Shown in pieces: positions 29,760 through 57,226 of a DNA stretch of 64,000 bases (positions are counted from its first letter, which is position 1; the number at the start of each line of letters is the position of its first letter). The notes beneath the pieces were generated by a model, which made no database searches, was not told where the DNA came from, and saw nothing but the letters and a program-made list of their open reading frames with translations. Origin of the DNA: Escherichia coli (lineage in GTDB: Bacteria > Pseudomonadota > Gammaproteobacteria > Enterobacterales > Enterobacteriaceae); NCBI RefSeq assembly GCF_009931435.1, contig NZ_CP043414.1; one strand, given 5' to 3'. The position numbers and the translations under genes are program-made.

Positions 29760-30491
29760 ATGAAAAAATGGAAAGTACGTAGCGCGTTGGTGGCATTAGT
29801 CGTGCTGTTGGCCGGTTGTTCCAGTAATGCGCAGTATAATAGCAGTGCATCGGGCAATGTCGGCACCGCCTGGGGTGGGGATGTGCACTCAACGGTTCAG
29901 GGCGTATCTGCTGAACGAGCCTGGCGCGATCCGGCAGAGATGATCGTTATTAGTTATTCGACTAATGTTCCTTCCGGCTACGACCGCGTTTATAGCATTC
30001 GTATTAACGAACTTGAATATGCTATTCGCGATGGTAATTTTAATTCTCTACCTATTACGCGGGTTTATAATTCATCAGGTAAAGAACTACGCTATATAGT
30101 CCATGCCAGAGTAGGAATGAATTACCAATTATATGTCCGCAATTACAGTCGTAACACCAACTACGAGATCGTTGCGACAGTTGATGGCCTGGATGTTCTC
30201 AATGGTAAACAAGGTTCCCTGAATAACAACGGCTATATTGTGAATGCCGGGGATTCGTTGGCGATTAAAGGATTCCGCAAAGATAAACATACCGAAGCGG
30301 CTTTTCAGTTCGCCAACGTTGCGGATTCCTACGCAGCCAATTCGGCGCAAGGCGATGTGCGTAATACCGGTGTAATTGGCTTTGCAGCTTTCGAATTGCA
30401 AGGCCCGGCGCAAAACACGCTGCCGCCGTGCTCTGGACAAGCCTTCCCGGCAGATAACAATGGCTATGCGCCGCCACCGTGTCGGAAATAG
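29760..30491 (+). CDS. Predicted lipoprotein of unknown function (not present at this position in K-12 as far as I recall)
   Basis: 243 aa; signal peptide with lipobox LAGC; N/S/Y/G-rich; AT-rich coding sequence with rare ATA/AGT/AGA codons; preceded by an AT-rich gap. Confidence 0.7.
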   Translation: MKKWKVRSALVALVVLLAGCSSNAQYNSSASGNVGTAWGGDVHSTVQGVSAERAWRDPAEMIVISYSTNVPSGYDRVYSIRINELEYAIRDGNFNSLPITRVYNSSGKELRYIVHARVGMNYQLYVRNYSRNTNYEIVATVDGLDVLNGKQGSLNNNGYIVNAGDSLAIKGFRKDKHTEAAFQFANVADSYAANSAQGDVRNTGVIGFAAFELQGPAQNTLPPCSGQAFPADNNGYAPPPCRK

Positions 30492-30626
30492 TAACCTCGC
30501 TTGATGCCTCGCCCATTTAAGGCGATAATTAGCACAAAATTGTGTTTCGCAAATCCAACCCTTCCTCGTCGGGCCTAACGACGCGGAAGGGTTTTTTTAT
30601 ATCGACTTTGTAATAGGAGTCCACCC

Positions 30627-42213: not shown

Positions 42214-42420
<207 letters not shown>

Positions 42421-42423
42421 TTT

Positions 42424-43332
42424 TTACTTAGTAGAGATAAACGGAACTGTACTGCCGGGGATCATGGTATCGGGTAGCTTACCGTCCCAACGCTCAGCAG
42501 TGGTGAGGGCAACAAGTCCGGGATTATCCCGCAGAGCTTCACCGCGCAGGCGGATCGCTTCTGCTTCAGCCGCACTTTTTAAACGAATAGTTTCAGCCTC
42601 TGCCGCGCCTCTTACGCGAATAGTCTCAGCTTCTGCTTTGGCTGCCGCCAGTTTACTGTCTGCTTCTGCCTGGGCCTGAGTTACCGCTATTTGCGCCTGG
42701 ATTTTCTCTGTTTCCAGATTTTGCTTACGTGTGGCAATGGCGACTTCTGCTTTCATTCGATCTTCAATCGATTTTTCATAAGCGTCAGAAAAATCAATAT
42801 TTTCAATCTGGACACCATCAATCACCACCGGGCCAACAACGGCTTTACGCATTGCATTTTGCAGATCCTGAACCAGTTTTGTACGATCCTGTACCGCGCT
42901 GATGGCGGTATATTGGCCGAAAACGTTCTCCAGTTGGGTTGGCAGCTGGCGGACGATCAGACGCTCTTTTAAAGATTCAATGGTGTTGTAGGTTGTATAA
43001 ACTGCGCCAGCTTCTGAAGGCTTAATATGAAAACTAACCGACACGGTCATTTGTGCCGGTTGCTGGTCGCGGCTGTAGGCCTGTAATCCCTGATAAACCA
43101 CAGCCTGATTACGCGTGGAAATTTTCTCTACGCTTTCCATAAAAGGGATCTTAAAACCCAGACCCGGCTCGGCAACTTTTACGATTTTTCCGTAGCGCAG
43201 CAAAATGCCGCGTTCACCTTCATTAACGGTGTAATACGAGAGAAATGGCAGCACAACCACGGTAAGCACGCCAATGGCGATAGCAATAGATTTTTGTGGG
43301 CGAAATGAGGTTATTGAAACAGGCGCTTTCAT
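42424..43332 (-). CDS. SPFH/band-7 (HflC/prohibitin-like) membrane protein (not a K-12 gene at this position, from memory)
   Basis: 302 aa; N-terminal TM (IAIAIGVLTVVVLPFL), then SPFH-like core and Ala/Glu-rich coiled-coil repeats (AEAETIRVRGAAEAETIRLKSAAEAEAIRLRGEA). Confidence 0.75.
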   Translation of the reverse strand: MKAPVSITSFRPQKSIAIAIGVLTVVVLPFLSYYTVNEGERGILLRYGKIVKVAEPGLGFKIPFMESVEKISTRNQAVVYQGLQAYSRDQQPAQMTVSVSFHIKPSEAGAVYTTYNTIESLKERLIVRQLPTQLENVFGQYTAISAVQDRTKLVQDLQNAMRKAVVGPVVIDGVQIENIDFSDAYEKSIEDRMKAEVAIATRKQNLETEKIQAQIAVTQAQAEADSKLAAAKAEAETIRVRGAAEAETIRLKSAAEAEAIRLRGEALRDNPGLVALTTAERWDGKLPDTMIPGSTVPFISTK

Positions 43333-54928: not shown

Positions 54929-56008
54929 ATGTCTAAGATTTTTGATTTCGTAAAACCTGGCGTAATCACTGGTGATGACGTACAGAAAGTTTTCCAGGTA
55001 GCAAAAGAAAACAACTTCGCACTGCCAGCAGTAAACTGCGTCGGTACTGACTCCATCAACGCCGTACTGGAAACCGCGGCTAAAGTTAAAGCGCCGGTTA
55101 TCGTTCAGTTCTCCAACGGTGGTGCTTCCTTTATCGCTGGTAAAGGCGTGAAATCTGACGTTCCGCAGGGTGCTGCTATCCTGGGTGCGATCTCTGGTGC
55201 GCATCACGTTCACCAGATGGCTGAACACTATGGTGTTCCGGTTATCCTGCACACCGACCACTGCGCGAAAAAACTGCTGCCGTGGATCGACGGTCTGCTG
55301 GACGCGGGTGAAAAACACTTCGCAGCTACCGGTAAGCCGCTGTTCTCTTCTCACATGATCGACCTGTCTGAAGAATCTCTGCAAGAGAACATCGAAATCT
55401 GCTCTAAATACCTGGAGCGTATGTCCAAAATCGGCATGACTCTGGAAATCGAACTGGGTTGCACCGGTGGTGAAGAAGACGGCGTGGACAACAGCCACAT
55501 GGACGCTTCTGCACTGTACACCCAGCCGGAAGACGTTGATTACGCATACACTGAGCTGAGCAAAATCAGCCCGCGCTTCACCATCGCAGCGTCCTTCGGT
55601 AACGTACACGGCGTATACAAGCCGGGTAACGTTGTTCTGACTCCGACCATCCTGCGTGACTCTCAGGAATATGTTTCCAAGAAACACAACCTGCCGCACA
55701 ACAGCCTGAACTTCGTATTCCACGGCGGTTCCGGTTCTACTGCTCAGGAAATCAAAGACTCCGTAAGCTACGGCGTAGTGAAAATGAACATCGATACCGA
55801 TACCCAATGGGCAACCTGGGAAGGTGTTCTGAACTATTACAAAGCGAACGAAGCTTATCTGCAGGGTCAGCTGGGTAACCCGAAAGGCGAAGATCAGCCG
55901 AACAAGAAATACTACGATCCGCGCGTATGGCTGCGTGCCGGTCAGACTTCGATGATCGCTCGTCTGGAAAAAGCATTCCAGGAACTGAACGCGATCGACG
56001 TTCTGTAA
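54929..56008 (+). CDS. fbaA: Fructose-bisphosphate aldolase class II
   Basis: ORF trimmed to MSKIFDFVKPGVITGDDVQKVF start (359 aa). Confidence 0.95.
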   Translation: MSKIFDFVKPGVITGDDVQKVFQVAKENNFALPAVNCVGTDSINAVLETAAKVKAPVIVQFSNGGASFIAGKGVKSDVPQGAAILGAISGAHHVHQMAEHYGVPVILHTDHCAKKLLPWIDGLLDAGEKHFAATGKPLFSSHMIDLSEESLQENIEICSKYLERMSKIGMTLEIELGCTGGEEDGVDNSHMDASALYTQPEDVDYAYTELSKISPRFTIAASFGNVHGVYKPGNVVLTPTILRDSQEYVSKKHNLPHNSLNFVFHGGSGSTAQEIKDSVSYGVVKMNIDTDTQWATWEGVLNYYKANEAYLQGQLGNPKGEDQPNKKYYDPRVWLRAGQTSMIARLEKAFQELNAIDVL

Positions 56009-56027
56009 GATATTCCTTTCTGCTTAC

Positions 56028-56230
56028 CTCAAGGCCCGCTCTGCGGGTCTTTTTTTCGCCAAAAGCAAAATTGCCTGATGCGCTACGCTTATCAGGCCTA
56101 CATGTATCCTGCAATATACTGAATTTACAGGCTTTTGTAGGCTGGATAAGGCGTTCACGCCGCATCCGGCATGACAAAGTGCACATTGATATCTGTCTGA
56201 GCCCCGCTCTGCGGATCTTTTTTCACCATA
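56028..56230. repeat. REP/BIME cluster bounded by duplicated terminator-like hairpins
   Basis: CCCGCTCTGCGGGTCTTTTTTT (56037-56058) and CCCGCTCTGCGGATCTTTTTT (56206-56226) flank REP units GCCTGATGCGCTACGCTTATCAGGCC and GGATAAGGCGTTCACGCCGCATCCGGC. Confidence 0.6.
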
Positions 56231-56365
56231 AGCAAGGTGATGCAGATGAGAAATCTGTGATCTATTTGGCAAAATTATGCTTTATTGTTTACCCTTGTCA
56301 GACTGCCCGTCATAAGGCGGCGGAGTGTATTTCTCCATTTTGAGTCAGTTGAAAAGGAATATTGA

Positions 56366-57226
<861 letters not shown>

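Follow-up and report, generated by a model that had tools for sequence, protein, structure and literature searches.

Repetitive extragenic palindromic (REP) sequences and bacterial interspersed mosaic elements (BIMEs), also discussed as REPINs, occupy about 1% of the Escherichia coli genome, and the mechanism by which REP doublets spread is described in the literature as unknown. One class, BIME-1, comprises a z1 and a y REP and a long L linker that frequently carries a site for integration host factor (IHF) (Ton-Hoang 2012). Published models for BIMEs involve single-stranded circles and cleavage between C and T, with no duplication of the target. Here we describe a BIME-1 in the spacer between fbaA and mscS, within a 64,000-nucleotide stretch of E. 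coli contig NZ_CP043414.1 (assembly GCF_009931435.1; the whole stretch is referred to as the window), which is bracketed by two copies of the fbaA terminator. The comparison of filled and empty alleles here, downstream of tktA and between yqeA and yqeB leaves us in little doubt that a single insertion, accompanied by duplication of the target, gave rise to this arrangement, and that such events recur at BIME-1s.

The likeness to the REPIN/RAYT system lies in the REP doublet found here and in the rayT gene of K-12. The difference is that target DNA is duplicated here, over a length that matches the hairpin at tktA and, with a further base at either end, at yqeA–yqeB, two of the three loci. IS200/IS605-like transposition proceeds without duplication, whereas 35, 22 and 28 nt are duplicated at fbaA, tktA and yqeA–yqeB when filled sites are compared with empty ones. 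Another close relative is provided by the ordered REPIN clusters of Pseudomonas fluorescens SBW25, in which a REPIN and its flank are repeated in tandem and for which an unknown 'second mechanism' was invoked (Bertels and Rainey 2011, Fig. S7). There, as here, the repeated unit includes flanking DNA that is not REP; the window holds 1.2 copies of a 167/168-bp unit and Escherichia sp. E1V33 holds 2.2. The SBW25 clusters are known within one genome, with no empty sites, whereas in E. coli the empty site identifies the flank as a duplicated terminator hairpin. Neither the duplication of a target hairpin or terminator nor a 152-nt unit defined from empty sites is mentioned in Ton-Hoang 2012, Nunvar 2010, Bertels and Rainey 2011 and 2022, or Nielsen and Hansen 2024; the older BIME literature may contain them.

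A BIME-1 between two copies of the fbaA terminator

The first-pass annotation of the window had reported two near-identical terminator hairpins, CCCGCTCTGCGGGTCTTTTTTT at 56036–56057 and CCCGCTCTGCGGATCTTTTTT at 56204–56224, on either side of two inverted REP units in the fbaA–mscS spacer. Both strings lie at these positions, and matches to the REP core motif at 56088–56101 (plus strand) and 56137–56150 (minus strand), with inverted arms that are 87% complementary, confirm the REP pair between them. The strings had been said to differ at one position; there is one substitution, but the T-runs also differ, T7 against T6. A repeat search and alignment show that the direct repeat extends past these strings, to 35 nt in copy 1 and 34 nt in copy 2 (Table 1), with a period of 168 and with 30 of 35 positions identical. 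The repeated segment contains the terminator hairpin, the T-run and 12 further bases.

The DNA enclosed by the two copies is a true BIME-1, an element for which the names RIP and RIB are also in use. Its Z1 and Y REPs are inverted relative to each other, both have the GTAG/CTAC foot, and it shares with other BIME-1s the outer flanks and an L linker (56102–56136) with a predicted IHF-like site, an equivalent of which was found in all five BIME-1 copies tested. Its position is extragenic, at the 3' end of a transcription unit, and it stands as a single copy in the window. It differs from the canonical 152-nt element in being truncated at its left end, where the first ∼19 nt (GAGACTGATGRCAAA...) are missing. 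The K-12 RefSeq record used for comparison carries no REP annotation, and REPs were located in it by a core-motif search.

The only Rfam matches, to ES036 (CssrF sRNA), fall at 42312–42354 (plus strand) and 56094–56136 (minus strand), on the L linker and REP feet of the tktA and fbaA BIME-1s. ES036 probably models part of a dispersed repeat rather than a locus-specific small RNA, and as a repeat-derived family it was discarded as uninformative about the fbaA locus.

The filled allele is derived

A scan with MscS, taking one genome per species, gave 80 enterobacterial loci, and the fbaA–mscS spacer could be extracted from 56 of them. In 51 of these 56 the spacer contains a single hairpin with a T-run and no REP, and is 158–218 nt long, most being 174–194 nt. 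The REP-free group, which spans ∼50 enterobacterial genera besides Escherichia, includes Citrobacter, Klebsiella, Enterobacter, Kluyvera, Kosakonia and Buttiauxella, together with the two GTDB representatives of E. coli; among the extracted loci only E. whittamii and Escherichia sp. E1V33 have a REP-filled spacer. Orthologous sequence runs unbroken across the insertion site in the genera other than Escherichia. The segment that follows the T-run in copy 1, CGCCAAAAGCAA, has TTGCCATTTCAA and sequences like it as orthologues in other genera, and is therefore native target DNA.

Both forms are found within E. coli. The filled allele is present in 3,719 of 5,425 complete genomes, and the remainder (∼31%, or ∼1,700) are empty. 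The empty allele is 167 bp shorter, holds the copy-1 sequence exactly and only once, and joins it directly to the flank that lies to the right of copy 2 in the filled allele; the region upstream of mscS (56236–56365) is the same in both. Two synthetic queries were searched against these genomes. One, for a chimeric short allele with the left part of copy 1 and the right part of copy 2, found no match at ≥99% identity in any genome, and the other, for two terminators in tandem without the BIME, found none in the 5,425. From the outgroup spacers and the absence of chimeric alleles and terminator tandems we conclude that the filled form is derived from an ancestral spacer with one terminator and no REP, a state that persists as a segregating allele in E. 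coli. This short allele is best read as a site that was never occupied.

The fbaA–mscS spacer of Escherichia sp. E1V33, 527 nt long, has three terminators and two BIME-1s in the order T-BIME-T-BIME-T. This presumably represents expansion of the 167/168-bp unit through unequal crossing-over between the repeats.

The same footprint at tktA and yqeA–yqeB

A parallel architecture had been noted after tktA, and it is borne out: a 22-nt repeat, AAGGGCCGCGAAAGCGGCCCTT, flanks a complete BIME-1 on both sides (Table 1), and in the empty site of E. coli TW10598 the tkt and prohibitin-family genes converge on a single hairpin. In K-12, a perfect 28-nt hairpin repeat, AGGCCGGGTGGGTAATACCATCCGGCCA, surrounds a 152-nt BIME-1 between yqeA and yqeB (NC_000913.3 3012399–3012606). 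This site is filled in 1,649 of the 5,425 E. coli genomes (≥99% identity); most of the others are 180 bp shorter, and a single hairpin occupies the empty site in EDL933. We conclude that yqeA–yqeB is a young insertion and the cleanest case of the footprint.

The tktA and yqeA–yqeB elements are of equal length (152 nt), and in the Z1-to-Y direction they have GAGACTGATG... and ...CAATCT(G/T) as their common ends. The duplication coincides exactly with the palindrome at tktA (22 nt) and exceeds it by one base on each side at yqeA–yqeB (28 nt), and the homology at the junctions does not exceed 2 nt at either locus. In both cases the gene-proximal hairpin copy has lost its T-run, and judging from this arrangement transcripts probably read through the BIME to the distal copy. 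At three loci, then, an insertion the size of the element goes together with a duplicated stretch of target DNA peculiar to that locus, and the allele lengths sampled at these loci were only those of empty sites or of filled sites with both copies.

The region downstream of tktA is itself variable between strains. A convergent prohibitin-family gene is present in the window and in about 1,200 genomes, and K-12-type strains have cmtB instead, with a different tktA terminator. In E. coli AHB24, the tktA BIME-1 has a 12-nt deletion in the L linker beside the Z1 REP, and both hairpin copies are kept.

Long flanking repeats are confined to BIME-1s

The first-pass annotation had proposed scanning for REP clusters bounded by near-identical hairpins. 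We examined 814 kb in total, of which 750 kb of K-12 sequence was added to the window, and which contained 60 REP clusters. The left and right flanks of each cluster were compared by local-alignment score, with mismatched flank pairs as the null. The scores were 23 for fbaA in the window, 25.5 for its K-12 orthologue and 22 for tktA in the window, against a null mean of 7.4 and 99th percentile of 11.5; the few null scores above 20 arise where the fbaA locus of the window was paired with its K-12 counterpart. Chance similarity of the flanks is ruled out by this comparison.

Flanking duplicates are not general to REP clusters. Long flanking repeats are confined to canonical BIME-1s, being present at 3 of ∼10 such loci and at none of ∼47 other clusters (hypergeometric p ∼0.004, estimated from these counts), which rules them out as a universal property of REP clusters. 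A terminator-type hairpin lies within 3 nt of one end of the element, or is fused to it, at 7 of 10 BIME-1 loci examined. Two further BIMEs in the window gave no usable pair of filled and empty alleles, that at yggL–yggN being near-fixed across genomes and that at yggR–ruvX having no clean empty allele.

Several individual BIME-1s show other arrangements. The cueO–gcd element of E. coli Rb-3 has an extra internal unit of a Y REP and its flank, and is ∼55 nt longer than in K-12, indicating internal expansion of a BIME-1. In K-12, the yhaC–rnpB element (19715–19821 of the scanned segment) is flanked by the inverted 8-mers GCGGGTTT and AAACCCGC, as if it lay inside a hairpin. The K-12 dacB–obgE element (30458–30564 of the scanned segment) begins 2 nt past the obgE stop codon and is directly followed by the obgE terminator hairpin; placed between the two, it lies within the obgE 3' untranslated region (UTR).

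Termination at the two fbaA copies

The terminator in copy 1, T1, has the features of an intrinsic terminator, namely a G+C-rich hairpin and a U-run, with in vivo RNA 3' ends of K-12 falling in the T-run. In the window it was flagged by a terminator scan and folds at −14.1 kcal/mol (RNAfold), whereas T2, in copy 2, has a weakened hairpin followed by T6, folds at −6.1 kcal/mol and was not flagged. T1 is identical in seven of eight Escherichia sequences sampled, the exception being strain K99B (GGGGC for GGGTC). Copy 2 takes several forms. It is almost the same as copy 1 in strain R32_14_1F; in the window strain the weakening of the hairpin is accompanied by two additional changes; in K-12 and O157:H7 it reads CCCCGCTCTGCGGGGA-T6, a changed sequence that nevertheless forms a good stem (−11.6 kcal/mol), pairing differently in K-12 as CCCCGC/GCGGGG; and in E. 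whittamii the hairpin is destroyed. Because copy 1 is near-invariant and copy 2 variable across the sampled Escherichia, we conclude that copy 1 is the conserved working terminator of fbaA. Copy 2 is a redundant by-product, which is decaying in the window strain.

Term-seq at fbaA, which had been suggested as a check, is available for K-12 MG1655 grown in LB to an optical density (OD) of 0.4, in LB to OD 2.0 and in M63 (Adams et al. 2021, Supplementary file 1); the T1 sequence of K-12 is identical to that of the window and its T2 differs. These data place the main 3' end at copy 1 and a second one at copy 2. The 'primary' fbaA 3' end, at 3070118/9, is the fifth or sixth T after copy 1 and is seen in all three conditions, and an 'orphan' 3' end at 3069950, the last T after copy 2, is seen in LB at OD 2.0 only, where the read counts of the two are similar (54,607 for T1 and 44,902 for T2) (Adams et al. 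2021). Since an RNA 3' end is found there in stationary phase, copy 2 can be used as a back-up terminator in K-12, and read-through transcripts ending there carry the REP pair. The genes yqeA and yqeB have no entries in the Term-seq tables, and on this ground are not highly expressed.

Insertion mechanism and alternative origins

Taken as a whole, we consider it probable that a BIME-1 entered the fbaA–mscS spacer at the fbaA terminator in one insertion event, in which the target segment holding the terminator was duplicated. Insertion of a REP element with target duplication was one of two origins proposed in the first-pass annotation, and it is supported by the ancestral empty site, by an allele that is shorter by one period, and by recurrence at tktA and yqeA–yqeB. 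We are more tentative about the geometry of the breaks, which is possible rather than probable. In the simplest geometry, given that the duplication matches the palindrome at tktA and nearly so at yqeA–yqeB, each strand would be broken at the 3' foot of its own hairpin, these feet being at opposite borders of the target, with the target hairpin either extruded as a cruciform or single-stranded at a replication fork; the element would then be joined between the staggered ends and the gaps filled. As the breaks would fall at hairpin feet, the length of the duplication would be set by the structure of the target and not by the enzyme.

The obvious candidate catalyst is RayT, the REP-associated Y1 HUH transposase, for which a gene, rayT, is annotated in K-12. 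HUH chemistry, by which the 3'-OH of a target attacks an end joined through 5'-phosphotyrosine, would be compatible with the hairpin-foot geometry. One could go further and regard BIME-1 as a discrete mobile unit of 152 nt (GAGACTGATG...CAATCTK) whose targets are DNA hairpins, intrinsic terminators for example, and whose integration proceeds by cleavage at opposite feet, perhaps by a RayT dimer, although this proposal is speculative and we put it forward with some doubt.

Integration by Cas1-Cas2 has a comparable geometry, in that attack at opposite borders and gap filling duplicate a repeat of ∼28–37 bp that is usually palindromic. The analogy with CRISPR spacer integration is geometric only, an insert being flanked by two copies of the target; there is no array, leader or Cas involvement here, and the insert is a genomic repeat of 133–152 nt. 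[quoted passage not shown] MITEs and classical transposons, however, have a fixed duplication length, whereas five BIME-1 loci show 0–3, 10, 22, 28 and 35 nt. The DDE transposases produce a fixed duplication of 2–15 bp, in contrast to the long duplications seen here (22, 28 and 35 nt), which follow target structure.

A number of observations weigh against this account of the insertion. At fbaA the duplication runs 19 nt beyond the foot of the hairpin, and at both junctions the target and the BIME ends are imperfectly homologous (CGCCAAAAGCAAA compared with TGRCAAANGCAAA, and TATCTCAAG compared with AATCTGAG), so that these junctions fit homology-guided copying better than cleavage at hairpin feet. 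The IS200/IS605-type Y1 transposases, to which RayT is related, make no target duplication. A search of the three loci for RayT-type cleavage sites between C and T gave no consistent picture, and the direction in which the BIME lies with respect to the T-run or replication is not consistent among them either. Duplication is also not obligatory at BIME-1s. The polymorphic cueO–gcd element lies 3 nt after a hairpin with at most 3 nt duplicated; the polymorphic yaaX–yaaA element repeats only 10 nt, ATCCGGCATT, a sequence that the outer stem of its Y REP has in common with the target hairpin; and three further BIME-1s in K-12 have no flanking repeat. Finally, the filled fbaA allele is old, being present in E. 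whittamii and having diverged copies, and part of the present E. coli polymorphism at fbaA could reflect secondary losses. A GAG trinucleotide is found at the right end in the copies from fbaA, E. whittamii and cueO and at the left end (as GAGAC) at tktA and yqeA–yqeB; such a shift would be expected if a circular or tandem intermediate had been opened at more than one point, and is offered as a lead.

Foremost among the rivals is a template switch during replication, to which we assign a minor but appreciable chance. A nascent strand would stall at the hairpin, copy a BIME-1 elsewhere by way of short homology and return upstream, so that the hairpin is copied twice; no transposase is required, and stable hairpins are known to stall polymerases. 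Such copying would account for the variable duplication lengths, for an fbaA element that has homology at both junctions and is truncated exactly at the left one, and for the sequence shared between target and Y REP at yaaX–yaaA. It sits less well with tktA and yqeA–yqeB, where full-length elements with sharp, identical ends, minimal junction homology and a duplication that matches the hairpin point to a discrete mobile unit rather than an arbitrary stretch, and with the fact that no flanking sequence of a donor has been brought along. Two separate events, either slippage that duplicated the terminator followed by arrival of a BIME-1, or two BIME-1 insertions on opposite sides that then recombined, are unlikely. 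The 5-mer CAAGG occurs on both sides of the duplicated segment in the empty fbaA site and may have permitted slippage, and one-sided layouts of BIME-1 and hairpin do exist at cueO–gcd (left) and dacB–obgE (right), but this explanation demands two rare events at each of three loci, and neither the terminator tandem expected at fbaA nor any other intermediate between the empty and double-copy states appears among the sampled alleles.

It is highly improbable that the T-BIME-T form is the older one and that the short alleles were formed by deletion, through recombination of one terminator copy with the other. The direct repeats, with stretches of 18 and 13 identical bases, would permit such loss, the triplication in E1V33 shows that they do recombine, and the filled allele is old enough to be shared by E1V33 and E. 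whittamii. In every non-Escherichia genus examined, however, the spacer is unbroken, of equal length and with a single terminator, and none of the short alleles is a chimera of the kind that crossing-over within the hairpin portion of the repeat should yield; even granting some losses, the first origin of T-BIME-T would be left unexplained, and the outgroups largely refute this order of events. Least credible of all is selection for tandem terminators that secure termination or stabilise the 3' ends of the fbaA and tktA mRNAs, with the REP pair incidental, which was the other origin proposed in the first-pass annotation. Both copies do give RNA 3' ends in K-12 in LB at OD 2.0, copy 2 of K-12 retains a good stem through its altered pairing, and the fbaA 3' UTR is a known ProQ ligand; the proposal thus survives in so far as copy 2 yields a stationary-phase 3' end in K-12. 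As an account of origin it fails, because the copies are duplicates by descent that are always accompanied by the BIME, and copy 2 has evolved freely, with a weak hairpin in the window strain and a destroyed one in E. whittamii. One terminator suffices in ∼31% of E. coli and in all other genera examined, loss of the T-run from the gene-proximal copy at tktA and yqeA–yqeB worsens termination there, and the footprint is also found at the poorly expressed yqeA and yqeB. Insertion with target duplication is the reading that we prefer.

Significance of the footprint

BIME-1 itself is known, and an abstract of 1997 reportedly mentions 'excisions of a whole BIME-1' among E. coli strains. What is new is the hairpin-duplicating footprint, unless the older BIME literature already holds it, in which case the value of the present loci drops to that of a well-documented example. 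The pairs of filled and empty sites with a sharp 152-nt element give testable predictions as to target choice (hairpins of the terminator type), break geometry and the enzymes involved, and the footprint is at odds with the usual supposition that insertion is IS200-like and leaves no duplication. Structure-dictated duplication, if true, would be an undescribed mode of transposition for REP/REPIN elements and would give a first sequence-level handle on their spread. For annotation, the footprint accounts for those 'double terminators' of E. coli that enclose a REP pair, and for the 'orphan' Term-seq 3' end 169 nt past the fbaA terminator.

Features of the fbaA and tktA loci

The coordinates of the features are collected in Table 1. 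The FbaA protein encoded in the window has 100% amino-acid identity with that of K-12, and the fbaA stop codon is at 56006–56008.

Table 1. Positions of genes, terminator copies and BIME-1 components in the window.
Feature	Position	Strand	Basis
fbaA coding sequence, class II fructose-bisphosphate aldolase	54929–56008	+	Open reading frame list, RefSeq-annotated orthologues
T1, fbaA intrinsic terminator: AAGGCCCGC-TCT-GCGGGTCTT, 9 pairs, then T7	56031–56056	+	Terminator scan
Direct-repeat copy 1, original target segment, 35 nt, GCCCGCTCTGCGGGTCTTTTTTTCGCCAAAAGCAA = GCCCGCTCTGCGGGTC-T7-CGCCAAAAGCAA	56034–56068	+	Repeat search, alignment
Inserted BIME-1, 133 nt	56069–56201	+	Alignment with six other BIME-1 copies
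Z1-type REP unit, GCCTGATGCGCTACGCTTATCAGGCCTAC	56073–56101	+	Core motif match, alignment
IHF-consensus-like site in L linker, ATTCAGTATATTG	56112–56124	−	One mismatch to WATCARNNNNTTR
Y-type REP unit, inverted relative to Z1; plus strand reads GTAGGCTGGATAAGGCGTTCACGCCGCATCCGGCA	56137–56171	−	Core motif, inverted-repeat arms, alignment
Conserved BIME-1 right flank ending ...ATCTGTCTGAG; consensus ...CGCACnTTGTCAnCAATCTGAG	56172–56201	+	Alignment with other BIME-1s
Direct-repeat copy 2, 34 nt, CCCCGCTCTGCGGATCTTTTTTCACCATAAGCAA = CCCCGCTCTGCGGATC-T6-CACCATAAGCAA; contains T2	56202–56235	+	Repeat search, alignment
mscS coding sequence	56366–57226	+	ATG at 56366; open reading frame list, orthologues
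tktA hairpin copy 1, AAGGGCCGCGAAAGCGGCCCTT, without T-run after it, −22.7 kcal/mol	42226–42247	+	Repeat and fold
tktA complete BIME-1, 152 nt; Z1-to-Y reading GAGACTGATGGCAAAGG...CCAATAATCTG	42248–42399	−	Alignment, empty-allele comparison
tktA hairpin copy 2 (42400–42421), identical to copy 1, then T-run	42400–42425	+	Repeat and fold

The ends of the fbaA–mscS spacer carry a perfect 10-nt inverted repeat, ATATTCCTTT at 56010–56019 and AAAGGAATAT at 56353–56362. Its second arm overlaps the ribosome-binding region of mscS, and it is also present in the short allele. This inverted repeat may have arisen by chance.

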